A stretch of DNA of 64,000 bases from an uncultured Candidatus Saccharibacteria bacterium. GTDB taxonomy: Bacteria; Patescibacteriota; UBA1384; 2-12-FULL-50-11. Location: contig CAZRED010000001.1 of assembly GCA_964599405.1 (NCBI GenBank), positions 149,942-213,941 on the forward strand, read 5' to 3'. The notes under the pieces are model-generated. The model worked only from the letters and a program-made list of their open reading frames with translations. It was not told the origin of the DNA and did not search any database. Shown one piece after another: positions 25,385 to 41,922 of this stretch; within the stretch, counting starts at the first letter, position 1, and every line of letters starts with the position of its first letter. Made by a program: the position numbers and the translations under genes.

Positions 25385-25506
25385 GGTTGTTACTTCGTAA
25401 TCAACGCCCTGCAGCTACGTCGGGTAAAGTTATAGCTCTCGGCACGTTAACCAGAATTTAACAACTCCGTGCTATCCTTAATATAATTAAGGAGCCGAAG
25501 ATAACT

Positions 25507-26718
25507 ATGTACCGCCAGCACGAATCACCTAAAAAATTTGATTTTGGAAGGTTGGTAATTGTTGCCATCACGGCAGTCGTAATAATTACCGCCACCCTCA
25601 TTTATCTAACCCGCAAAGAAATTATAAAATTTGGCGAGCTTGGCCCTACCCCTCTAGCCTACAACTCCACCCTTTCCTTACTACCTGGTAGCGGGGTACT
25701 TAACTTGGGCGAGCCCCAACGCATTGCTATTCAGCTAACAACGGGTGGTGATGCGATAAACGCCGTCCAGACCACGGTTGTCTATGACCCCCAAAAAGTA
25801 ACGATTACCGAAATTCTGACAACCGATTCTTTCTGTCAGCTCTTTCCGGTTAAAACTATTAACGCCACAATCGGCGAAGCAACGATCGGCTGTGGCTTAC
25901 CAACCCCCGGGTTTAGCGAGGCTACCGGTACAGTTGCGGTGTTATCGCTGGGCCTGAACCAGGCCGGTACAGTCTCGTTGGGATTGAAAGACAGCTTAGT
26001 TTTAGCCAACGACGGGCTGGGAACAAACGTTTTGCGCTCAACCACTGGCGCTGAGTATCAAGTGACCGACAGCTTACAGACAACGACTGTTTTGGCGCAA
26101 GGATCGGGCATGCTGACTGTCGCACCGATTTTGAGCGTTACTTCGCCAACCCACCCAGATCCTGAACAGTGGTATAAAAGCCGGGACGTGCAGTTTGTCT
26201 GGACAGCCACTAGCGGCTACCAATATGTCTACCACTTTGATCAACTTCCAGCCTTGGTACCGGACAGTTCGTTTATAGCTGCCGTTAGCCCTTTAACTGT
26301 AACCGCCCCCGCTGATGGGGTTTTTTACTTCCATATGGCAACAAAAAAGGCCGGGGTCGTCCAATCAATCTACGACCGACCGGTTAGAGTTGATACCGCC
26401 CCACCGCAAACCGTTAATCTTAGTGCCAGTCAAACCGAGATTAAAGTAGGCGAGATTGTTCAGCTCGTGTCGTCAGGCCAAGACGATACCAGCGGCGTTC
26501 AGTCTGCTTTTTACCTGCGAGAGGGTAGCGGCTCCCCCCTGTTTATCGGTGCTAATCACAGCCATACATTTAGCGACCCGGGAGAACACATTTTAGTACT
26601 GCAAGCGTTCGATAACGCTGGTAATTATAGTGAGGATCAGATTGTGATTAGCGTCACTAGCCCCGGGTTCTTTGCCAAAGTCTGGTCTGGTCTGTTGTCA
26701 CTGGTTGGTCTGCGCTAA
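25507..26718 (+). CDS. Membrane-anchored cohesin-like domain protein
   Basis: N-terminal TM. Residues about 60-190 match the cohesin beta-sandwich pattern (INAVQTTVVYDPQKVTITEI compared with cohesin CDFVYSYDPNVLEIIEI). Confidence 0.5.
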   Translation: MYRQHESPKKFDFGRLVIVAITAVVIITATLIYLTRKEIIKFGELGPTPLAYNSTLSLLPGSGVLNLGEPQRIAIQLTTGGDAINAVQTTVVYDPQKVTITEILTTDSFCQLFPVKTINATIGEATIGCGLPTPGFSEATGTVAVLSLGLNQAGTVSLGLKDSLVLANDGLGTNVLRSTTGAEYQVTDSLQTTTVLAQGSGMLTVAPILSVTSPTHPDPEQWYKSRDVQFVWTATSGYQYVYHFDQLPALVPDSSFIAAVSPLTVTAPADGVFYFHMATKKAGVVQSIYDRPVRVDTAPPQTVNLSASQTEIKVGEIVQLVSSGQDDTSGVQSAFYLREGSGSPLFIGANHSHTFSDPGEHILVLQAFDNAGNYSEDQIVISVTSPGFFAKVWSGLLSLVGLR

Positions 26719-26784
26719 TTGTAATAATTCCTGACAATTACCGGACTTCAAAAGACTTGTAATTAACGTAACAAAATAGTTACT

Positions 26785-27516
26785 ATGGTTATGAACCAAC
26801 AAAAAATACTAATGAAAAACATCACATTTGTTGTACTACTCATCGTGACCGTCGTGGCTTTTGTGCTTATTGCGACAGTTAGTAATCTGGTAGCAACCAC
26901 TGTCCCGGGTTTTCCCAACACTAGCTCCACTTCTGATTTTACCCAGACGATTAACCCCGGCACGTTGACAGTGGATATCGTCGACGGCAGTTACGTGGCA
27001 GTTGGTAGCCCGGCCGTAGCGATGAGCGCGGCAACGTTCGGTTTTACCTGTCAGACCACCACTGGCACCTTCGGAACCGGCACCCAGCAAATTTATGTTA
27101 AAAACCCCGACGCTTCCGACACCGGCTGGTCAACTACATTGGCCGCTTCCGCCCCCACCGCTTTTTGGGACAGTGCCGGTACTGATATGGACTTTAACGA
27201 CCCAACAACTGCTGGCTGTACTGATGGTGCCGACGCCGATAGTTTGAAAGGCCAAATGACGGTTGATCCTTCGGTCGGTACATTGGCCGTTGGGCAGTGC
27301 TTAAGCTGTGTGGTCACCAACGTCACCAAAGGATCGCTGGCGGCATTTAACCAAGCCACTCTCGATAGCATCACTATCTTAAGCGGCGCTGCAGGGTCGG
27401 ATGATATCGGCGACTGGAAATTAACCGGTGTATCGATTAGCCAAAAGATCCCGGGCGAACAGCCAGCGGCCAGCGACTACACCATTCCTCTGACACTTTC
27501 GATTGTGGCCATCTAA
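26785..27516 (+). CDS. Small secreted protein with a C-terminal WxL-like module (paralog A)
   Basis: N-terminal TM/signal, then a roughly 170-aa module shared with 27503-28228 and with the C-terminus of the 1914-aa protein. Trp-x-Leu motifs GDWKLTGVS and GWSTTL. Confidence 0.6.
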   Translation: MVMNQQKILMKNITFVVLLIVTVVAFVLIATVSNLVATTVPGFPNTSSTSDFTQTINPGTLTVDIVDGSYVAVGSPAVAMSAATFGFTCQTTTGTFGTGTQQIYVKNPDASDTGWSTTLAASAPTAFWDSAGTDMDFNDPTTAGCTDGADADSLKGQMTVDPSVGTLAVGQCLSCVVTNVTKGSLAAFNQATLDSITILSGAAGSDDIGDWKLTGVSISQKIPGEQPAASDYTIPLTLSIVAI

Positions 27517-28210
27517 AGTTTGGGGGATTATCAAAAACAATACATTCCTCCTCGTCATCATCTCCATTGTCGTGCTGTCGATACCGTTTATTGTTAATGC
27601 CTTAATTACCAACGAAGCCCCACGATTACCAAACACCGCCGACGTTAACTTCACCCATACCATCAACCCCGGCACGTTGACGGTGGATGTTGTGGATGCT
27701 AGTTATGTCGTCGTCGGCAGTCCATCGGTGGCAATAAGCGCCTCAACCTTTGGTTTTACCTGTCAGAGTGCAACTGGGCTTTTTGGTACGGCCACCCAGC
27801 AAATCTACGTCAGAAATCCCGACGCGGCCGATAACGGTTGGGTAACGAGTTTGGCCGCTTCCGTCCCCACCGCTTTTTGGGACAGTGCCGGGACCGATTT
27901 AGACTTCAACGATCCGACGACTGCTGGCTGTACTGACGGCGCTGATACCGATACCTTGAAGGGTCAGATGTCGGTTAACCCAACCGTGGGGACATTGGCC
28001 ATCGGGCAGTGCGCCAGCTGTACTACTACCAACGTCACTAAGGGCTCCTCATCGGCCTACAACGAAGGGACGGTAGACAGCATTACCATTTTGAGCGGCG
28101 CCGCGGGGTCAGATGACATCGGCGACTGGAAATTAACCGGTGTGTCTGTTAGTCAAACTATTCCCGCCGAACAGCCAGCGGCCAGTGATTACAATATCAA
28201 CCTAACTCTT
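26940..28210 (+). repeat. Tandem gene duplication (two roughly 560-bp near-identical coding repeats)
   Basis: 26940-27500 and 27650-28210 encode near-identical modules (TINPGTLTVD...LTLSIVA). Confidence 0.7.
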
Positions 28211-28228
28211 AGTATTGTTGCCAGCTAA
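27503..28228 (+). CDS. Small secreted protein with a C-terminal WxL-like module (paralog B, tandem duplicate)
   Basis: About 80% identical to paralog A over the module. 14-nt overlap with the upstream gene. Confidence 0.6.
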   Translation: MWPSKVWGIIKNNTFLLVIISIVVLSIPFIVNALITNEAPRLPNTADVNFTHTINPGTLTVDVVDASYVVVGSPSVAISASTFGFTCQSATGLFGTATQQIYVRNPDAADNGWVTSLAASVPTAFWDSAGTDLDFNDPTTAGCTDGADTDTLKGQMSVNPTVGTLAIGQCASCTTTNVTKGSSSAYNEGTVDSITILSGAAGSDDIGDWKLTGVSVSQTIPAEQPAASDYNINLTLSIVAS

Positions 28229-28269
28229 CAATAATTAGAGAATAATAATTATATAAAACAGAGGGGATT

Positions 28270-29271
28270 ATGAAAAAACTACATCTAAAAAAACTCTTAT
28301 TGGCAACCAACCTAATGACTGTGCTGTCGTTATTGTCGCCCAACTTTGCCCAGGCAATTGAGTATGGTGGCGTTGGTGGAAAACCGGCCAATCCGATTGC
28401 CGGCAACTCTCGAACCGAGTCAATATTTATCCACACCCTTGAGCCGGGAGCAACCCAAGAAGACGGGGTGCTGGTGGTAAATAATAGCCCCGAGACTAAA
28501 ACCCTGTTGGTCTATGCAGCCGACTCCACTCCTTCCACCGATGGCGCTTTCGCCTGTAAGCAACTAACCGAAGAGAAGACCGACGTCGGTGCTTGGATTA
28601 CCTTAAAAAAGTCAGAGGTAACACTGGAATCCGGTACCAAAGAAACCGTTCCCTTCACCATTCGCACTCCTCTAACCGCCAGCGTTGGCGAACATAACGG
28701 CTGTATCCTGATTCAGGAAAAGAAAGCCGCCGTTGAAGGCCAAACCGGCGCGGCCATATCGATGCGGACCGGTCTGCGCGTCGCTATTACTATTCCTGGA
28801 GATATCCTTAGAAAACTGGAAATTGGCGCCCTGACAGTGGCACCAACAGACGCTGGATTTTCCCTTACCCCCACAGTTAAAAACATTGGTAACGTCTCAA
28901 TTGACGCAAACGTTCGGGTAATAACACGCAATTTCATTGGGATGACGCATTTCACGAACGGCGGAGAGTTTCCGATTCTCCGAGGCGATACCTCACAGTG
29001 GAATTTCGATTTGAAAAGACCGTTTTGGGGCGGTTTTTACCGTTCCACCCCCGGCGTTGAGTACGACGAAAATCCAGAAGCGGGCGTTGGACTAAAAAGC
29101 GGCAAGGCGCTGACTAATTTAACTGGAGCCACCGTTTGGTTCTTTAGTTTCCCAACGCTACCGGCCTTACTAATCGAAATCTTGGTACTACTGTTTATTT
29201 TCCTTGGCTTACCGTTGATCATTCGCCAGATCCGCAAAAATCGCTCAGTGCCTTCAGTGCCGCTAGCTTAG
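28270..29271 (+). CDS. Signal-peptide protein with a C-terminal TM anchor and short basic tail (DUF916/CscA-like architecture)
   Basis: 333 aa. Lipobox-less signal peptide. C-terminal helix FPTLPALLIEILVLLFIFLGLPLII is followed by RQIRKNR. Confidence 0.45.
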   Translation: MKKLHLKKLLLATNLMTVLSLLSPNFAQAIEYGGVGGKPANPIAGNSRTESIFIHTLEPGATQEDGVLVVNNSPETKTLLVYAADSTPSTDGAFACKQLTEEKTDVGAWITLKKSEVTLESGTKETVPFTIRTPLTASVGEHNGCILIQEKKAAVEGQTGAAISMRTGLRVAITIPGDILRKLEIGALTVAPTDAGFSLTPTVKNIGNVSIDANVRVITRNFIGMTHFTNGGEFPILRGDTSQWNFDLKRPFWGGFYRSTPGVEYDENPEAGVGLKSGKALTNLTGATVWFFSFPTLPALLIEILVLLFIFLGLPLIIRQIRKNRSVPSVPLA

Positions 29272-29308
29272 GCCAGCTTGTGCTGGTGGTGGGGCTTTTG
29301 GATAAAGG

Positions 29309-32300
29309 ATGACTAAGCTCCAAATACAACTCCTGCTTGTGATTGGTCTATTGGCGTTGATTGTCAGTGGTTCCTTGGCGTTACGTAAACCGCCCTCAGT
29401 AACTCCGCCCGAAGCTACCTACCGCTACCGCCCACTATCAGAGCTGAAGCTCAATACCACGAATCGGGACAAGTATTTCGTTGGCCAGCACGAAGTGGTT
29501 CCGACGACGGAGCCAATCACGGCGGCTGTGCCACCACTGGCGCACCAAGCTCGGCTCTCTTTGAACAGCGCTCACCCCGGTCTACCAAATACTGGTGCCG
29601 GCGATTTTGATACCTCGATTAAAGCCACTGGCACGGGTTCGATTGCCGAAGCGGTACCGAAAAGCTCCCAGGCCAAAGCGGGTCTGTATCAGCTGAAAGT
29701 AACCGACGGGGTCACTGGGCAGGTAGTTTCTGACCAGACCGTTGCCTGGGGCGTATTAGTTTTTAACTCCGATTACGCCGCCTATCCAATCAACACCAAA
29801 GCCAGACTAGCGATGGCGGTTTTGGACGACCGTGGCAAGATGATCTGTGACGCCGAGCTGACGCTGGCGATCACTGAGCCCAACGGCCGAACTATTACAT
29901 TAAGCACGGCTAATAACCAAATTCTCGTTAATGAGGCCTGTTTTGTCTACGGATTGACCGAAGAGCCAGACTACGTGGCCGAATATTTACCAACCCAAGC
30001 TGGTAACTATCAGGTTGCCTTAACCGCTCGGATCGGTAACGGCGTTAGAGTGCTACACGATCAATTCTCCGTGGTCGAAAACGCCCCGTTCTATCTGCAA
30101 AGGGTTGGTGCTTCCCGAACCTATCCGGCCGCTAGCTATCCCTACACCTTTAACTTTCAACCCACCCAAAGCGGTCGTTACCAATTAACCGAAAACGTGC
30201 CGGGCAGTTTCGAAATACTCGACCTGACGATTGACGGCAACCCCTGCCCGACGGAAAGCTTACTGAACGCCGGAGCTTGCAAGATTGAGGTCTCTGAGGA
30301 CGGCAATGAGAAGCAATTAATCTGGCGGGTCGACGCCCGAGCCAATCGTGATATAAAGATCGCCTATACATTTAAGGGGCCTAGTATTTCGCCGTATTTA
30401 TTCCGGCTTGGACCGGCCGAAATCACCTCACCCGACGACTCAATTTGGACGGAGACACGTTCTTGGCTAATTGCCTCCGATGCCGCTTGCCAATCGAACG
30501 GCACTGGCGGCGGCAACTCCAACGCATCTGGCTCTTGGCAGACCTGCGGTGGGACGACCCCGCAGGCCGCTGACTCAATTACCATTCTGAGCGGCGACAC
30601 CATTACTATGAACGCCGCCTTGAGCGTCACCAGCATTGTTATCAACAACGGCGGCATTTTTACCAACAACGCCAGCCCCTTCACCTTAACGCTCACCGGT
30701 ACCACTGGCACCCTCTTCACCTTGGGCGCAACCGGTACCTTCACGCCCGGCACTTCGATTAGCGTCACGATGAACCCAAATGCTTCAATTACCACTACCT
30801 CCGGTACCATTACTTTTTTTGACTTAAACTTTACGCCGACAATCTCTGCCAGCAACAAAACCTATACGATGGGTTCCGGCGCTCTGACCATTAACGGCAA
30901 CTGGGCTATTACCGGTACGGCCGCGAGTAACGCCTTAACCTTAACGGTTAATATGAGTGCCAACGTGACGGTGGCTTCGACAAAAACCACGACGATTGGC
31001 CCGGCGTCGTTAACTAACAGAGCCACTTTGGACGTACAGCCCTCACTGGCCAGCTACAACCTAACGACCGGTACCCTGGCTATCACCGCCCTAGGTACGC
31101 TAAACGCCGCCAATGCCACCTCGGCGATTACGGTTGCCAACAGCTACAGCAATAGCGGCATTTTCACCGCCGGTTCTAGCACGGTTAGCTTCACCGCTAC
31201 TGCCACTGGTAAAACTTTGAGCGGTACACTATCCGGCGCTAACGGTAAATTCTTCAACGTCATTTTCAACGGCGTCGGCGGTGCCTGGGCATTCGGTGCT
31301 GCCGTCGAAGTAGCTAACGACTTTACCGTTACAAATGGGGCCGTCACTGCTAGTAACAATAATCTCTCCGTCACTCGTGACTTTACACTGGCTTATACCG
31401 CCGGTGTTTCTTACGTGGCTGGATCGTCAACCGTTACCGTCGCCAGACACTTCAATGACCCTGGCGTCAAATACGTTTCTAACACTTCCGAGCTGGCTCT
31501 GGACGGCACGGGCACTTTAACCACCGCTACAACTGCTTCCCTTTACGATGTATCGCTTGGCCAATCCGGCAACACAACAACACTGGCAATGGCCGGAGCG
31601 ATCGACAACTTTAACTACTACGCTAGCGACACAGATCATTTCCGGGTCCTGCTCTTCGACGGGAGTGTTGTCAAATACAAAAGCGCCGAGATAACCCCGC
31701 CCGGCACCGGTGTCAGAAGCTATACTCCGCCATCCCCTGTCCCCTACAAAGCTGGCTGGAGTATCGGTATCTATACCGTCGGTAATGGCGTCATTCCCTA
31801 CACCGGTAGCGGCGGCACACACTACTACCAAGCCAATAACTCTGGCCAACCAAACGAGGAAGCTACGATTTCCTGGCAAGGAACAACAGTCCGAACCTAT
31901 TCGATTAACGGCGAGGTCAACGGCGTCCGGGTAATCGGCAATGACGCTATCAGCCGGCCTTCGCTCGACTCATTCACTAATACCTCCCTGAAAGACACCA
32001 ATAACAACGCTACGGGGGTGGCGGAAGGATTATTAACTGTGACCAACGGCGCTACCTTGAACGGCGGTACGGTTACCGGCACTGATACCGGACTATTTCT
32101 ACCGTGTAGCACAACTTGTTCCGGCCACCTGGTCTTTAACTCACCGACCACCTTGAGCGGCTCCGGCGACAACCGGGTAGTTTACTCAACCGGCAACTCA
32201 ATAACCTATACCGTTACTGGGGGAACCTACGGCAGTTGGAATATTGCAATGGAGACAACCACCCTGTCCGATACGCCGATAACGTTCGAGCTTGGGGGAA

Positions 32301-35053
32301 ATATTATCACCGACGGGTTTGTCGCCCTTCAAGGGTCGCCCCTGGGTGGGAGCAATAGCTTCAACACCGCCGGTTTCAATATGACCGCACTGCGTTTTGA
32401 CGCTGGCAGCGAAAACCAGACCGGTAGTTGGGTCGTTAATCTTGGCGCCTCAACAATTACCCTGGACTCGACTAGCGACTCCTTTGGCGTAGCCAGCAAC
32501 GGCGGCTCCCATACCTTCAACCTCTCTACTTCCTCTGTCTCCACGACTGGGGATATCCGGTTTATTAACGGTACCGGTACAGTCGCCGCGTCTGGCAGTA
32601 CTTCCACGATTACGATGACACCAGCCGCTTCGACCACCCGGACTTTCACCACTAACGCCCAAACGATTGATAACTTTGTCGTTAACGGCGGTAACGGTGC
32701 CGCCACTGTCAACCTGGACGGCAATTTAATTGCCTCTGACAACTTAACGATTACCGCTGGTACTTTGGACGTTACGGCAACGCCGTACAGCGTCACAATC
32801 GGCGGCAACTACTCTAACTCCGGCAGCTTTACTCCCCGGTTGGGTACTGTGACTTTTAATGCTACCGACGCGGGTAATACTCTGGCGGGCACGATGACCG
32901 GTGCGTCAGCCTTTTATAATCTCGTTTTCGACGGCGTTGCTGGCGGCTGGAGCTTTAGCGCCGCGGTGACGGCAACGAACGACTTTACCGTTACCAACGG
33001 GGACGTTACCGCCAATAACAATAACTTGACTGTTACCAGGGACTTTACGCTAACTAACGTGGTGGGCGTTTCCTACACGGCCGGCTCCTCCACCATCACC
33101 GTTAGCCGCGACTACAATAACCCCGGCGACCGGTTTGTTCGTGGCACATCATTAGTTATCCTTGACGGCACCGGCAACGTTAATACCACTGGCGGTAAAT
33201 TTAATAACCTTTCTCTGGCTTACACCTCACAAGTCTCAACCTTCAATACCACCAACTTCGCGGTTTACGGCGTTCTCACCTTTAACGGCGGTACCGCCAA
33301 CGGGAGTGTTGACGGTTACGTTTCGCTGGAGCGATCTGCTAGCGCTACCCCAATTGTGTTCGCATCAGCCACCACCCTCTCCGGCACTAGTAGGACGCTT
33401 TTTCATAACAACAACGCCAATAGCCTGACTACCACCATCGCTGGTGGTAACTACGGGACGTGGAATATTATTTTGTTTACTACCCTTGGGCCTGCCACCA
33501 GTAGTATCTACCAGTTAGCCGGTAATATTACTAACACTGGTTACGTTACCCTCCAGGCCGTTGGGGGATCGACGGGCAACGTTTTTAACACCCAAAACTT
33601 CAACATTACATCGCTACGGTTTGACCTCGGCACCCAGTCCCGAACCGGACCGTGGACTGTCAATTTTGGGTCTTCGACGCTGACCCTTTCTGATACTGCT
33701 GATTCGTTTGGCGTTGCTAGTAACGGCGGCTCTCATACCTTCAACCTTTCAACCGCCGCCATCAACACCGTTGGGAACGTGCTGTTTGCCAACGGCACCG
33801 GCACCGTGTCCGTGAGTCAGGGCACCTCGACCGTGACTTGGGCGCACCCAACTGGTACCAAAACTTACGCCCCCAACAGCCAATCTCTGCACAATCTCAC
33901 GCTCAACAGCGCCGCTGGTACCCTTCAACCCAATGGTGCCGTTATTGCTACCGGCAACTTTATTATCACCGCCGGCAGCTACGACACCGTTGCTGGCCAA
34001 GACTACGCCTTAACGATCGGCGGCAACTACACCAACTCCGGCACATTTAATGCGCAGGGTGGAACGGTTACCCTAAACGGCTCCGCTACCCAAACGCTTT
34101 CTGGCACGATGGTCGGCGGTAGCGCATTCAATAACTTAACGATTACCAATAATTCTGGCACATCGGCTAGCGACTGTGAGCGAACAAGTTTTGTCCCATC
34201 AGTGGACTTTAATGCCGCTGCTTGGACAAGCGGTAACTACACCATCACTACGGCCAATGTTCGGGTCGAGTACAACTCCGGCTCTACCTACGCCTTCACC
34301 AACATCAATTGGAACGGTCAGACGATTGGGACACAGATTTACTTCCGCAACTCGGTCGCCAGCGACACCTGGCTGTTGGATGTTTCGGGAACGCAGACAG
34401 CTGTCTCCTACGTTAACGTCTCCCGGTCTAACGCCGCTAGTGGCCTTCAGATTGTTGCTAGCGACGGTACCAACACTGACTGCAACAACAATAGTAACTG
34501 GCTTTTCGTTTCTGGTGCCTTATCGACCGATATCGTTAACGCTGGCGGCACTCCAATTGATTCACCATCTATCGCCATGGGTGCAGCCACATTCTCCCTT
34601 TTATATCAAACAGTTAGCGGTATCTTTGGCGCCACTGATGAAAAAGTCAGAGTTAGTAACACCACCGTTAACCCCCAATGGAGCTTGACGATTGCCGCCA
34701 GTAGCGGTCCGACTGGGCTCTGGTCGGCTGGGACACCGAAGTATGACTTTAACGACCCAACTGGGAGTGCAGGAGACGGCGGCGATGGCGACGCTTACGG
34801 GGGACAGCTGACAATGGATGTGACTGGTGGAACCCTTGGTGGAACCTGCTCGACGACCGGAATAACTAAAGGATCATCTGCTGGTTTTTCTGAAGGAGTG
34901 GTCAACTCAATCACCCTGCTCACGGCCAGTGGCACGGCCGACGTTAGTTGCTATTGGGATTTAACCGGCGTGGACGTACTTCAAACCCTACCTTCCGAGC
35001 AAGCAACTAGCAGCTACTCCATCAATATGACTCTCACTATTACCGCCAATTAA
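29309..35053 (+). CDS. Giant (1914 aa) repeat-rich surface protein ending in the WxL-like module
   Basis: Signal/TM at the N-terminus. Long Thr/Gly/Asn-rich beta-solenoid-like repeats with two roughly 400-aa internal duplications. The last roughly 170 aa are homologous to the two small paralogs (YWDLTGVDV, QWSLTIAAS). Confidence 0.7.
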   Translation: MTKLQIQLLLVIGLLALIVSGSLALRKPPSVTPPEATYRYRPLSELKLNTTNRDKYFVGQHEVVPTTEPITAAVPPLAHQARLSLNSAHPGLPNTGAGDFDTSIKATGTGSIAEAVPKSSQAKAGLYQLKVTDGVTGQVVSDQTVAWGVLVFNSDYAAYPINTKARLAMAVLDDRGKMICDAELTLAITEPNGRTITLSTANNQILVNEACFVYGLTEEPDYVAEYLPTQAGNYQVALTARIGNGVRVLHDQFSVVENAPFYLQRVGASRTYPAASYPYTFNFQPTQSGRYQLTENVPGSFEILDLTIDGNPCPTESLLNAGACKIEVSEDGNEKQLIWRVDARANRDIKIAYTFKGPSISPYLFRLGPAEITSPDDSIWTETRSWLIASDAACQSNGTGGGNSNASGSWQTCGGTTPQAADSITILSGDTITMNAALSVTSIVINNGGIFTNNASPFTLTLTGTTGTLFTLGATGTFTPGTSISVTMNPNASITTTSGTITFFDLNFTPTISASNKTYTMGSGALTINGNWAITGTAASNALTLTVNMSANVTVASTKTTTIGPASLTNRATLDVQPSLASYNLTTGTLAITALGTLNAANATSAITVANSYSNSGIFTAGSSTVSFTATATGKTLSGTLSGANGKFFNVIFNGVGGAWAFGAAVEVANDFTVTNGAVTASNNNLSVTRDFTLAYTAGVSYVAGSSTVTVARHFNDPGVKYVSNTSELALDGTGTLTTATTASLYDVSLGQSGNTTTLAMAGAIDNFNYYASDTDHFRVLLFDGSVVKYKSAEITPPGTGVRSYTPPSPVPYKAGWSIGIYTVGNGVIPYTGSGGTHYYQANNSGQPNEEATISWQGTTVRTYSINGEVNGVRVIGNDAISRPSLDSFTNTSLKDTNNNATGVAEGLLTVTNGATLNGGTVTGTDTGLFLPCSTTCSGHLVFNSPTTLSGSGDNRVVYSTGNSITYTVTGGTYGSWNIAMETTTLSDTPITFELGGNIITDGFVALQGSPLGGSNSFNTAGFNMTALRFDAGSENQTGSWVVNLGASTITLDSTSDSFGVASNGGSHTFNLSTSSVSTTGDIRFINGTGTVAASGSTSTITMTPAASTTRTFTTNAQTIDNFVVNGGNGAATVNLDGNLIASDNLTITAGTLDVTATPYSVTIGGNYSNSGSFTPRLGTVTFNATDAGNTLAGTMTGASAFYNLVFDGVAGGWSFSAAVTATNDFTVTNGDVTANNNNLTVTRDFTLTNVVGVSYTAGSSTITVSRDYNNPGDRFVRGTSLVILDGTGNVNTTGGKFNNLSLAYTSQVSTFNTTNFAVYGVLTFNGGTANGSVDGYVSLERSASATPIVFASATTLSGTSRTLFHNNNANSLTTTIAGGNYGTWNIILFTTLGPATSSIYQLAGNITNTGYVTLQAVGGSTGNVFNTQNFNITSLRFDLGTQSRTGPWTVNFGSSTLTLSDTADSFGVASNGGSHTFNLSTAAINTVGNVLFANGTGTVSVSQGTSTVTWAHPTGTKTYAPNSQSLHNLTLNSAAGTLQPNGAVIATGNFIITAGSYDTVAGQDYALTIGGNYTNSGTFNAQGGTVTLNGSATQTLSGTMVGGSAFNNLTITNNSGTSASDCERTSFVPSVDFNAAAWTSGNYTITTANVRVEYNSGSTYAFTNINWNGQTIGTQIYFRNSVASDTWLLDVSGTQTAVSYVNVSRSNAASGLQIVASDGTNTDCNNNSNWLFVSGALSTDIVNAGGTPIDSPSIAMGAATFSLLYQTVSGIFGATDEKVRVSNTTVNPQWSLTIAASSGPTGLWSAGTPKYDFNDPTGSAGDGGDGDAYGGQLTMDVTGGTLGGTCSTTGITKGSSAGFSEGVVNSITLLTASGTADVSCYWDLTGVDVLQTLPSEQATSSYSINMTLTITAN

Positions 35054-35081
35054 CAGACTTTCCTCTCCATTAATTTACGTA

Positions 35082-36089
35082 GTGAGTTTGTTTCGTTATC
35101 CTAATATTGGTAGGGGTGTAATCGATTCCATGAGAACTGGCCGTTTTAAACTGTTTGCTTTGATACTAGGTCTGACCATAGTAGCGTTTGGGAGTGGCAT
35201 AAAAACCGTCGCCGCCCAAGACAGTCCCAGCGTCTTATATGTCCCCTTAATCGGCCTAACATCGGTACCAGATCCGTTGGCACTACCGGATGGGGCGGGT
35301 GATGTAACGTATCATTACGCAGTTAAAAACTTTCTTAGCGAGGCGGCTTTAACTAACGTCCAAGTCGTCGACGACAACTGTGCCTCCGTTAAATTTATCG
35401 AAGGCGACGATAATAACGACTCCGAGCTTGATTACGACGAAACCTGGCGCTACACCTGTACCACTAAAGTTTCCGTCACCACTCAAAGTACGGCCACGGC
35501 CACCGGTACTGCCAATAATTTAACCGCGACTCACAAAGCCTACGTTACCGTTATTGTTGGTCTAAGTGACCCAGCCCCACTTGTTAGTATTGTTAACATC
35601 ACCAAAGTTGCCTATCCATTGTCCCTACCGGCCGAAGGAGGCGACATTACCTTTATCTATAAGGTTAACAATCCAGGCGTCGTGTCATTAAGTGATGTCA
35701 CTGTCGTTGATGATAGGTGTGGGGCGATGTCCGGCAAACTCGGGGACAGGAACGGCAACGGCCTGCTGGATACCAATGAGGTTTGGATTTACACCTGTAC
35801 AATGACTCTGAGAGAGACTACTACCAATACCGCCACCGTTACCGCTTTTGCTAATGGATTAATGGCCACGAATAACTTTTCCCTGACCGTCAAGGTTGAC
35901 ACCCTAGTCGATCAGGCGCTCATCAAACTTCCCGATACCGGCAAAGATGCGCTATTAAAAATTATGGTTTGGGAAATCTTATTAGGTATATTGGTAACTC
36001 TACTCACCATATCTATTGTTTTAAACCGAAAGAATCGACTGCGAAGCGTTGAAATTACACAAAATATCTTAGACGGGGGAAGAAAGTAA
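35082..36089 (+). CDS. LPXTG-anchored surface protein with two tandem roughly 110-aa repeats
   Basis: C-terminal LPDTG, hydrophobic helix, then NRKNRLRS. Repeats contain VVDDNC...WRYTCT and VVDDRC...WIYTCT. The likely start is the internal Met at 35130. Confidence 0.65.
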   Translation: MSLFRYPNIGRGVIDSMRTGRFKLFALILGLTIVAFGSGIKTVAAQDSPSVLYVPLIGLTSVPDPLALPDGAGDVTYHYAVKNFLSEAALTNVQVVDDNCASVKFIEGDDNNDSELDYDETWRYTCTTKVSVTTQSTATATGTANNLTATHKAYVTVIVGLSDPAPLVSIVNITKVAYPLSLPAEGGDITFIYKVNNPGVVSLSDVTVVDDRCGAMSGKLGDRNGNGLLDTNEVWIYTCTMTLRETTTNTATVTAFANGLMATNNFSLTVKVDTLVDQALIKLPDTGKDALLKIMVWEILLGILVTLLTISIVLNRKNRLRSVEITQNILDGGRK

Positions 36090-36132
36090 CCATGAATTGT
36101 TTAGAGGACTAAATGAATAGTTTGTTACACAA

Positions 36133-37044
36133 ATGAAAAGACCAAAATTAGTATTAATAATTATTGTGCTGGTTGTTGTAGCCGCGTTGGGGGCCGGAGT
36201 TTATTTCAAGCTGATTCCCCGTCTGTTCCAAAAACCCGTCGCCACAGTAGTCGATCAGCTATTCGGTTGGAAGTTTCCAATTACCAAATTCCCACTGGTT
36301 GGGCCGGATGGCCAACTGGCGTACTCCAACATCCGTGATCCTGGCGGTATACCACAAGGGCTACCAGTTCGCCTGAAAGTTCCCGTTATCGGCGTCGATT
36401 CAGCTATTGAAGACGCGCTGATTACCCCGGACGGAAGAATGGACGTGCCAATCGGCTCGGTTAATGTTGCCTGGTTTTCTCTTGGCCCTCATCCCGGCGA
36501 CGAAGGAAGCGCGGTGATCGGTGGGCATTTTGGGATTAGAGACGGGGTGCCGTTCGTCTTCTACAACTTAGACAAGCTAAAGGTTGGCGACAAGGTATAT
36601 GTGGTCGACGACAAAGACCAGACATTGGCTTTCCAGGTCAGGGAAATTAAATTATTCGATCGAAACGCTGATGCAACGACGGTTTTTACCTCCGATGACG
36701 GGTTGGCTCATCTTAACCTGATTACTTGCGAAGGCATTTGGAACCAAGTTGACGGTTCGTATCCCGAGCGGCGAGTAGTGTTTACCGATGCCATACCATC
36801 AGAAGGGGCAGTAACCGTTACTCCTAAGTCTCCAACGGCGGCGATTCCCACGCCAAACCCAACACCAACTCCGACACCAACTCCGACAACAGAAAATACA
36901 GTATCTACAGCTGCCTTGCTTCAGAGCGTGAATCGGGCAATAAAAAGTGCGGCCAGTACGCCAATCGACGCACTAATCACTTTCACCCTACTAGCTTCGA
37001 TAGCGTATATGGCCACCAAAATCGTCAGGCTCCGCAGAGCATAG
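36133..37044 (+). CDS. Sortase family transpeptidase
   Basis: N-terminal TM. Catalytic His in GGHFG, TLxTC-type motif LNLITCEG, Arg in RRVVFTD. Pro/Thr-rich linker and C-terminal TM. Confidence 0.75.
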   Translation: MKRPKLVLIIIVLVVVAALGAGVYFKLIPRLFQKPVATVVDQLFGWKFPITKFPLVGPDGQLAYSNIRDPGGIPQGLPVRLKVPVIGVDSAIEDALITPDGRMDVPIGSVNVAWFSLGPHPGDEGSAVIGGHFGIRDGVPFVFYNLDKLKVGDKVYVVDDKDQTLAFQVREIKLFDRNADATTVFTSDDGLAHLNLITCEGIWNQVDGSYPERRVVFTDAIPSEGAVTVTPKSPTAAIPTPNPTPTPTPTPTTENTVSTAALLQSVNRAIKSAASTPIDALITFTLLASIAYMATKIVRLRRA

Positions 37045-40311: not shown

Positions 40312-41253
40312 ATGAGGGTTCTGAACATGACTAAGCCTAGTAAGTATTCAACAATCAATGTATTGATCGCTTCCTTGGTGGTTGGACTCGCTGGTGTAGT
40401 TGTAGCATTCGCGGCCGGCCCCACAACCGTCAATCTTGGCACAGCCGAACCTTTTGCCATCCTAGCTGGGACTCCTGATATTACTGACTCTCCGACATCG
40501 ACTATTACTGGAAACGTTGGGTTGTACCCAGGCCCTGCTTCCGGTATCGGGCTACTTTGTTCACAAGTAACCGGGACAATCTATGGGCGCGATGGCACGG
40601 GTGACCCGTGTTTTACGGTCAACGATCCGTTACTCCTGGCGGCCAAGAACGACTTAACTGCCGCGTTTACCGATGCAGCCGGGCGAACACCGGTTATTAT
40701 TGTACCAACCGAGCTCGGCGGAACGACTAAATTTGCAGGTGTTTACGCCTCTGACGACACTACGTTTCAGATTTCGGCACCAATCCCCCTCATCCTCGAT
40801 GGACAAGGCGATCCCAATGCCGTTTTCATCTTCGAAATGAATGCGGAGGGAACCGGACTGACTGTCGGACCGGGTAGTGTGGTACAGCTCACGGGCCAGG
40901 CCCAGGCCTGCAACGTCTTTTGGCGAGTAGACACAGCTACTATCGACAGCACCGCGGTATTCAAGGGTACTATCCTGGCTCTGACCTCGATTACGGTGGC
41001 TAACGGCGCCAACATTGAAGGAAGACTATTGGCTCGTAACGGTAGCGTCACCTTAATTAACGACACCATCACCAAACCGACTTGTGTAGCAGCGGCTACA
41101 GTCACTCCGCCGGCAACTACGCCATCTCTCCCCGACACTGGTCTAACTCCCGATGGCAGCAACAGTGCCGTGTGGAGCGTTATTATCCCAGTTTGGGCCA
41201 TTGCCGGTCTGTTCTCGTTCTGGTTAGTTCGACGCAAACAGCGGACGATTTAG
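40312..41253 (+). CDS. LPXTG-anchored ice-binding-like (DUF3494) beta-helix protein
   Basis: AEPFAILAGTPDIT...GNVGLYPG and CNVFWRVDTATIDSTAVFKGTILALTSITVANGANIEGRLLARNGSVTL are DUF3494 hallmarks. C-terminal LPDTG, TM, then RRKQRTI. Confidence 0.7.
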   Translation: MRVLNMTKPSKYSTINVLIASLVVGLAGVVVAFAAGPTTVNLGTAEPFAILAGTPDITDSPTSTITGNVGLYPGPASGIGLLCSQVTGTIYGRDGTGDPCFTVNDPLLLAAKNDLTAAFTDAAGRTPVIIVPTELGGTTKFAGVYASDDTTFQISAPIPLILDGQGDPNAVFIFEMNAEGTGLTVGPGSVVQLTGQAQACNVFWRVDTATIDSTAVFKGTILALTSITVANGANIEGRLLARNGSVTLINDTITKPTCVAAATVTPPATTPSLPDTGLTPDGSNSAVWSVIIPVWAIAGLFSFWLVRRKQRTI

Positions 41254-41301: not shown

Positions 41302-41922
41302 ATGGGTCTATCACCAGCTCCATTAAAACGAGTGCTATTAGCTATCAAGCTGGTGGGGGTGTCAGCGGGAATTGTCGTCTCTTTGGCAATTTACTCTGCC
41401 AAAAATACCCCCGACTATGAAAACGTCTTAGTGCCCGTTGAGAAAATCGTCGTTCCTTCGGTGGTAGCGCCGGCTCTTTTGGCTTCTCCGTTGCGACTGA
41501 AGATTCCTAAGATTGAGGTTAACGCCGTCATCGAATACGTCGGTCTGAACACTGATGGAGCAATGGGAGTGCCGAAAGATCCCGCCGATGTTGCTTGGTT
41601 CAATCTCGGGGCACGACCCGGTGAGGTTGGTAGCGCGGTAATCGCCGGGCACTACGGGTGGAGAAATAATATTCCAGCGGTATTTGACGATCTCCATAAA
41701 TTGCGTCCTGGTGATACCTTAGTAATCGAGGACGACAGAGGAGCAAGCACCACCTTCGTGGTGCGGGAAAGCCGCCGGTACGACCCGACAGCGGACGCCT
41801 CGGAGATATTTTTGCAAAGCGACGGGATAGCTCACCTTAACCTAGTTACCTGCGAAGGGGTGTGGAACGTCGCTACTGATAGTTACTCTCGGCGGCTGGT
41901 GGTATTTACCGACAAACAGTAG
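41302..41922 (+). CDS. Sortase family transpeptidase (second copy)
   Basis: Paralog of 36133-37044 (IAGHYGW, NLVTCEG, RRLVVFTD). N-terminal TM. Confidence 0.75.
   Translation: MGLSPAPLKRVLLAIKLVGVSAGIVVSLAIYSAKNTPDYENVLVPVEKIVVPSVVAPALLASPLRLKIPKIEVNAVIEYVGLNTDGAMGVPKDPADVAWFNLGARPGEVGSAVIAGHYGWRNNIPAVFDDLHKLRPGDTLVIEDDRGASTTFVVRESRRYDPTADASEIFLQSDGIAHLNLVTCEGVWNVATDSYSRRLVVFTDKQ

Follow-up and report, generated by a model that had tools for sequence, protein, structure and literature searches.

A candidate WxL/Csc-type surface display cluster in Patescibacteria with a divergent C-terminal module

The seven-gene cluster and its shared module

The window analysed here is a stretch of 64,000 nucleotides (nt) from an uncultured Candidatus Saccharibacteria bacterium (NCBI GenBank assembly GCA_964599405.1, contig CAZRED010000001.1, positions 149,942 to 213,941 of the forward strand), and our subject is a cluster of seven co-directional genes at positions 25507-37044 of it, which probably encodes a surface display system akin to the WxL/Csc clusters of Firmicutes. 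All seven genes lie on the + strand, separated by spacers of 28-66 nt except where the two small genes A and B overlap, and the gene after the cluster lies on the opposite strand. Every encoded component carries an N-terminal signal or membrane helix as predicted from its sequence. Promoter-like and terminator sites did not exceed the counts expected from shuffled sequence, the best promoter-like site (11/12) lying at 25458-25487.

Four adjacent genes form the core of the cluster. Two encode small WxL-like proteins, A (243 amino acids (aa), 26785..27516, +) and B (241 aa, TTG start, 27503..28228, +), each consisting of an N-terminal membrane helix, a short sortase-type motif and a C-terminal module. 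They are followed by the gene for a WxLIP-like protein of 333 aa (WxLIP333; 28270..29271, +) with a DUF916/WxLIP_PGBD domain (PF06030), and then by that for a giant large-WxL-like protein of 1914 aa (29309..35053, +), in which an N-terminal membrane helix and a motif of the same kind precede a Thr/Gly/Ser/Asn-rich body and, at the C-terminus (aa 1736-1914, nt 34514-35050), the same module.

The first-pass annotation had proposed that the two small proteins and the giant have this module in common, and the BLASTP comparisons bear this out at a significance far beyond chance and background: small A is 71% identical to small B (E 3e-122), and with composition-adjusted scoring its match to giant residues 1736-1913 covers 185 aa with 41% identity (E 7e-30), as small B matches the giant C-terminus, also at 41% (E 2e-32). 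The module proved longer than the residues from about 75 to 243 and the last roughly 165 of the giant to which it had been assigned, since it begins near residue 57-59 of the small proteins, immediately past the signal region, runs for ~185 residues, and occupies the final ~179 residues of the giant; mature small A (aa ~47-243) is the module alone. The identity of about 80% that had been given for the small pair is right for their mature parts (78% aa, 74% nt identity) and too high for the whole proteins, at 69-71%. The small-type module has four Cys (C89, C145, C172 and C175), of which C175 is the only one invariant in both small and large module types, the large type having another second Cys two residues ahead of a downstream Trp. 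A predicted structure of the small protein is all-beta after the signal helix (predicted local distance difference test, pLDDT, 64).

The 14-nt overlap reported for the two small genes holds, because TTG 27503 is the sole in-frame start past the stop at 27491 that retains the full signal peptide of B; the next start, GTG 27572, would delete it. The tandem duplication behind the pair had been called recent, and here the dN/dS check points the other way: across the mature region synonymous divergence (dS) is ≈ 1.6 and nonsynonymous divergence (dN) ≈ 0.14 (dN/dS ≈ 0.09), and because synonymous sites are thus near saturation, the duplication is old, and it is under purifying selection. Two other loci (L004 and L089) likewise carry 2-3 tandem copies of the small gene. 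The giant has a duplication of its own, within its body, where two blocks of ~400-540 residues, at aa ~590-1130 (nt 31076-32698) and aa ~1146-1537 (nt 32744-33919), are 46-47% identical and the first copy holds an insertion of ~150 residues; this became visible when the two halves were compared, BLASTP of the giant against itself having listed no repeats. The body matched no Pfam domain.

WxLIP333 matches PF06030 at 31.5 bits (cut-off 27.3) over aa 48-149 (nt 28411-28716), preceded by a signal peptide (AQA/I, the slash here and below marking the cleavage position) and followed by a second beta-rich region, a C-terminal membrane helix at aa ~296-318 and a basic tail, RQIRKNR. Its assignment is supported by tblastn matches to annotated DUF916 proteins on plasmids of Actinobacteria (E down to 6e-15), by colinearity with bona fide DUF916 proteins, C-terminal helix included, and by PF06030 matches in 26 of 30 WxLIP-like orthologues from the Patescibacteria (candidate phyla radiation, CPR). 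These CPR proteins differ from Firmicutes WxLIPs in that no WxLIP_HBD domain was detected: PF11797 (DUF3324) matched 0 of the 30 at E ≤ 0.01, in a search of low power in which even a bona fide protein from Paenibacillus scored no more than 19.9 bits (cut-off 28.9), and a colinear second region of ~150 aa does exist. They differ also in what follows the membrane helix, since 26 of the 30 (alignment A5; e.g., L001:10741-11883) carry a peptidoglycan-binding LysM domain past the helix and a basic stretch. A single-pass topology would put this LysM domain on the cytoplasmic side, which makes it a topology puzzle; the window protein (28270-29271) stops right past the helix and has no LysM.

The cluster is completed by genes on both sides of this core. 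Upstream, its first gene (25507..26718, +) encodes a protein of 403 aa in which an N-terminal membrane helix is combined with a PKD domain (PF00801, 26.2 bits; cut-off 23.5), and weak relatives of it occur close to the operon at 18 further loci. Downstream, a DUF7507/DUF11-like protein of 335 aa (35082..36089, +; PF24346, 33.6 bits vs cut-off 27) has a signal peptide and, at its C-terminus, a classical sorting signal made up of LPDTG, a hydrophobic stretch and RKNR, and is the LPxTG component of the cluster. The last gene (36133..37044, +) encodes a 303-aa sortase (PF04203, E 1.6e-17) with the catalytic segment ..NLITCEG.., a Pro/Thr linker and a C-terminal membrane helix; it is nearest to class F, at 101 bits, which is under the class F model cut-off of 166. 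Downstream of the cluster, at a distance of 3 kb, an Ice_binding-like beta-helix protein (313 aa, 40312-41253; named from PF11999, E 3e-45) with a C-terminal LPDTG sorting signal is followed by a 206-aa sortase (41302-41922; ..NLVTCEG..), a second pair of this kind, giving the window two dedicated sortase-substrate pairs.

Distribution and conservation across Patescibacteria

Of the candidates scored from a set of 5.8 billion proteins, 762 are related to small A at E ≤ 1e-3, and the 120 listed are nearly all of ~230 aa and unnamed or 'hypothetical'; those with a named source, among the matches listed, belong to Peregrini-, Kerfeld-, Dojka- and Doudnabacteria or to the 'Patescibacteria group', and such a spread of close homologues points to Patescibacteria for the window organism as well. 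A profile search of 1.84 billion representatives found 701 clusters with the module, 628 of them below 1e-10, as the C-terminal end of proteins of 215-2069 aa. In nearly all 150 representatives listed, which range from 161 to 2069 aa, the module (~180-195 aa) reaches to within 1-2 residues of the C-terminus, and an alignment of 30 sequences has 25 invariant columns, including W115, W128, W211 and a D-F-N-D segment. Pfam and NCBIfam (June 2026) hold no model for it. Among 64 diverse members scanned for domains, the large ones carry Laminin_G_3, H_lectin, PATR, Ig-like, G8 or SdiA-regulated propeller domains ahead of the module.

The gene order of the window recurs with the family. Among 79 genome loci, which represent most of the major Patescibacteria lineages, almost all have a small gene, a WxLIP-like gene and a large gene ending in the module in succession, as do the longer ones among 31 metagenome loci, and the loci with this order span Saccharibacteria, Microgenomates, Parcubacteria, Peregrinibacteria, Doudna-, Kerfeld-, Dojka- and Gracilibacteria. 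Across 80 loci (L001-L083) the small protein is the best-conserved gene product of these neighbourhoods, at a median of 60-62% identity and up to 75%, against a median of 48% for the WxLIP and 24-56% for other proteins shared with the window. Such a difference implies either that the small protein is under exceptional constraint or that the operon has spread laterally among members of the radiation. Overall, the docking parts (small protein, WxLIP and C-terminal module) are strongly conserved across CPR and the cargo of the large protein is variable.

Two further observations concern individual loci. In nine loci labelled Peribacteria/Gracilibacteria (L012, L015, L016, L021, L024, L029, L038, L040 and L052) the module and WxLIP genes are split into short open reading frames (ORFs) under table 11. 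Gracilibacteria have been reported to use an alternative genetic code in which UGA is a sense codon, and the splitting would fit such a code rather than pseudogenes. At one locus whose small protein has an ordinary signal-peptidase site (L001:18955-20358), genes for two cohesin/PKD-like proteins come after the operon, and after these a PilM/PilN gene of type IV pilus assembly.

Relation of the module to WxL domains

In Firmicutes, a WxL/Csc cluster combines one or two small WxL proteins made up of a signal peptide and the domain only, a large WxL protein in which adhesin-like domains precede an extreme C-terminal WxL domain, a WxLIP protein (DUF916, DUF3324 and a transmembrane helix) and, often, an LPxTG protein, all of them secreted (PMC9772566, PMC10599100), as in L. 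plantarum cscA-D, the E. faecium Swp/Lwp/Duf loci, E. faecalis elr and Listeria (PMC1534035, PMC9772566, PMC10599100). The WxL domain of these proteins is 160-190 aa long and always C-terminal, is modelled as a beta-sandwich with its two motifs on adjacent antiparallel strands, and binds peptidoglycan non-covalently; AlphaFold models of the Firmicutes proteins insert a beta-strand of the WxLIP DUF916 domain into the WxL sandwich, and the literature places the system essentially in Lactobacillales and Bacillales. The window matches this arrangement gene for gene, with small A, small B, WxLIP-like and giant genes adjacent and an LPDTG protein and sortase in the same cluster, and with the module accepted as WxL-type it holds one WxLIP and at least two WxL proteins, small and large, which is the composition that defines such clusters. 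The first-pass annotation had likened the sharing of a module by a small and a giant protein to WxL, S-layer-homology and choline-binding systems alike. With a PF06030 partner at hand the WxL likeness stands, as probable homology and not mere analogy, whereas the other two analogies are not supported, because Pfam and NCBIfam scans of the cluster proteins and the 64 diverse members found no S-layer-homology or choline-binding domain.

Evidence for homology came from profile comparison, as the module lies beyond the reach of the Pfam WxL model. PF13731 matched none of the window's three module proteins at E ≤ 0.1 and 0 of the 64 members at E ≤ 1, with positive controls from Paenibacillus and Streptomyces at 29-30 bits (cut-off 25). 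The Streptomyces reference (L086:4786-6819; 29.1 bits) lies directly upstream of a DUF916 gene, and its relatives supplied an actinobacterial profile, to which we added a profile of 48 canonical WxL proteins from Firmicutes. In hhalign the CPR module (144 diverse sequences) aligned with the actinobacterial WxL profile at Prob 87%, E 3.8e-6 and a score of 45.7, over 144 columns and with the whole domain in register, such that W falls on W in the first motif and Y on Y in the C-terminal strand; as controls, the reversed profile scored 12.9 and 30 column shuffles ≤13.8. The actinobacterial profile in turn aligned with the Firmicutes one at Prob 94%, E 1e-7 and a score of 56.8. Compared directly with the Firmicutes profile, the module (as alignment A1 or as the diverse CPR profile) was not significant (Prob 1.7-1.8%, score 21.5-21.6), and only the first-motif segment paired. 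Ranking gave a similar picture: a hidden Markov model (HMM) built from actinobacterial WxL only placed module ORFs at 45 of the top 50 ranks among 3,213 ORFs, where ~3 were expected (~17-fold enrichment), and a Firmicutes WxL HMM placed them at 23 of 50 among the same ORFs (~8-fold). No WxL structure was detectable by sequence in the PDB. Judged from sequence, then, the module is probably homologous to WxL domains, as a remote member of the superfamily nearest to its actinobacterial branch and beyond the current Pfam model.

The first WxL motif is kept, as PQW-S-L in the giant, W-T-L in the large type and G-W-x-[VT]-S-L in the small type, where positions W-10, W-8 and W+4 are held by V, an invariant N and L, respectively. 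With Firmicutes WxL the module shares a G-W-x-x-S-[LV]-A-A first-motif segment with a hydrophobic residue at W-10, Asn/Asp at W-8 and a turn, as well as the C-terminal strand Y-x-x-x-h-T-h-x-h; the Arg at W-6 is not conserved, Asp standing in its place. The canonical second-motif strand Y-x-x-x-L-T-W-x-L reads Y-D-I-N-M-T-L-S-I in the module, the Trp being replaced (MTLSI), and the actinobacterial WxL proteins that pass PF13731 likewise have no Trp there (..Y-A-G-T-L-T-L-T-L), so that the second, eponymous motif is not essential to the superfamily. Another W-x-L (DWKL or YWDL) occurs ~25 residues upstream of the C-terminal strand and aligns with the Firmicutes G-x-G-T-W segment. Further departures from the Firmicutes system are its host, here a member of the Patescibacteria, the 41-56% full-length identity of small and large CPR modules, against differing topologies in Firmicutes, the four Cys of the small type and the unusual conservation of the small protein. 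A TasA/SipW-type reading of the module was set aside, as it met only far-below-cut-off matches (mtd_2nd, E 0.049; TapA/YqxM with SipW-type signal, E 0.12).

The closest detectable relatives of both the module and WxLIP333 are the actinobacterial WxL-DUF916 pairs. Their WxL domains have in common with the module the domain start T-[VI]-N-A-G-T-L-[SA]-[MV], the segment V-K-[DN]-...-G-W-[ST]-[LV], a mid-domain Cys pair and a C-terminal ..P-x-x-x-P-x-x-Y-x-x-x-[LM]-T-L-[TS]-[LI] with no Trp. They differ in passing PF13731, in adjoining glycoside hydrolases and in that a conserved small-protein partner is not evident. On the Streptomyces sp. ADI95-16 plasmid NZ_CP033582.1, for example, a 677-aa ORF upstream of DUF916, missing from the gene table of the plasmid database, joins GH43, a ricin lectin and WxL. 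DUF916 genes also occur in Clavibacter, Arthrobacter and Cellulosimicrobium; on the Clavibacter plasmid NZ_CP040796.1 the 208-aa ORF in the 'small protein' position upstream of DUF916 (L085:6089-6715) has no detectable domain and no detectable similarity to the module.

Taken together, these results lead us to read the cluster as a WxL/Csc-type surface display system of Patescibacteria whose ~185-residue module belongs, in highly divergent form, to the WxL superfamily, a reading to which we give a probability of roughly three in four. All components would be exported by Sec. Removal of the N-terminal anchor would leave the small proteins as bare WxL-like domains, and in the giant a long, repetitive and probably beta-helical body would precede such a domain at the C-terminus. 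The WxLIP-like protein would be kept in the membrane by its C-terminal helix, and its DUF916 (PGBD) domain, by analogy with Firmicutes, may bind and stabilise the WxL-like domains at the wall through strand donation, in which case small and giant proteins would be displayed there non-covalently. From that position the variable body of the giant could project outward as an adhesin or lectin, as its Firmicutes counterparts suggest, and the cluster sortase would covalently attach the adjacent LPDTG protein.

The module might instead be an independent, CPR-specific anchoring domain that stands beside a DUF916 protein and is not homologous to WxL, its beta-strand patterns and Thr/Gly/Ser-rich composition having converged. 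The failure of PF13731 and of the direct Firmicutes profile to match significantly would sit well with this, as would the loss of the second WxL motif at its homologous position and the sharp edge of the family in the HMMER search (628 of 701 clusters below 1e-10). It fits poorly with composition-preserving controls of 11-14 against 45.7 in an alignment that keeps the whole domain in register, with the ~17-fold and ~8-fold enrichment of module ORFs in the top 50, and with a three-gene architecture with the same partner family, and we consider this explanation unlikely. Also improbable, in our judgement, is that the module serves for polymerisation and not for wall docking. The highly conserved small protein would then supply the major subunit of a fibre or sheath on the cell surface, built through strand complementation, possibly with sortase ligation, and the large proteins would be added by way of their own copy of the module as tip or decorating adhesins. 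That the similarity between small proteins and giant is a compositional or chance artefact is refuted for practical purposes: nothing was found in its favour, and the Thr/Gly/Ser/Asn-rich make-up of the giant, which could inflate scores, meets E values of 7e-30 and 2e-32 after composition adjustment, the 25 invariant columns in 30 sequences and the occurrence of the module on hundreds of unrelated large proteins.

An N-terminal sortase-type motif and the place of the system in Patescibacteria

The window clade departs from Firmicutes WxL proteins, and from most of its own relatives, at the N-terminus. Most relatives of the small protein have an ordinary signal-peptidase site, ..YVLA/S-[AS]-T-S-N-F-T-Q.., and at exactly that position both window small proteins and about 20 of the 120 closest relatives listed carry P-x-[LF]-P-[NDE]-T/[GSA]. 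Small A reads VPGFPNT/SST (aa 41-49; FPNTS at nt 26911-26925) and small B APRLPNT/ADV (LPNTA at nt 27626-27640), with APQFPNT/GAT and IIPKLPDT/SAT as examples from relatives. In the giant the corresponding HPGLPNTG lies at aa 89-96 (LPNTG at nt 29582-29596), ~65 residues past the helix. The carriers (L004:7721-9988, L089:5473-6857, P0002-P0005, P0007-P0009, P0011-P0013, P0015, P0019, P0026, P0029, P0050 and P0055) are limited to a narrow clade around the window organism. Among the 79 genome and 31 metagenome loci the motif occurs, besides the window, in L004 and L089 alone, and both of those short metagenome contigs end before the sortase position; a sortase lies within 10 kb in 4 of the 79 signal-peptidase-type genome loci.

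The only Pfam domain among the 120 relatives listed bears on how the motif is to be understood. Two of them, P0008 (309 aa) and P0012 (317 aa), carry an N-terminal PG_binding_1 domain (PF01471) instead of the membrane helix, and [VI]PGFP[ED]T links this domain to the module, so the motif behaves as a conserved junction and is not merely part of a signal peptide. An 'LPDTS' in L077 was discarded as a chance match in a fragment, the small protein of the same genome (L076) having a normal signal-peptidase site. We also rejected a reading of PNT[S] as an N-glycosylation sequon, because PNTA, PNTG and PDTS do not fit N-x-S/T.

The comparison with sortase-anchored LPXTG proteins is close in some respects and inverted in others. 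The cluster has a classical LPDTG substrate and a sortase, and its module proteins bear [LF]P[ND]T[GSA] by a membrane helix, on the outer face; in these proteins, however, the motif is N-terminal and stands after the helix rather than before it, so that cleavage would release the mature protein, not attach it. A classical C-terminal sorting signal, present in the 335-aa and 313-aa proteins, is not found in the three module proteins. One possible explanation, which we put forward tentatively and would not bet on, is that the N-terminal motif is a sortase site that has replaced the signal-peptidase site: the cluster sortase would act as maturation protease, and the Gly/Ser/Ala N-terminus of the freed WxL-like domain might act as nucleophile and accept the LPDT-acyl intermediate of the adjacent LPDTG protein, amounting to protein-protein ligation or to an N-terminal sorting signal. 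To our knowledge, neither natural sortase-mediated protein-protein ligation nor an N-terminal sorting signal has been described, and a functional motif of this kind would put sortase to a new use.

CPR/Patescibacteria are tiny and mostly episymbiotic, and little is known of their attachment to host cells. The literature searched held no paper linking WxL or DUF916 to them. As a whole, the cluster described here is a strongly divergent form of a known system and not a categorically new one. A WxL-type platform for non-covalent display would give a testable role to an unannotated family that belongs to one of the best-conserved surface operons of the radiation, and would make its variable large proteins, with their lectin and adhesin domains, candidate host-attachment factors. 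It would likewise extend the WxL system to Actinobacteria-like and CPR branches, which suggests that this system is an old wall-docking device of monoderm bacteria.

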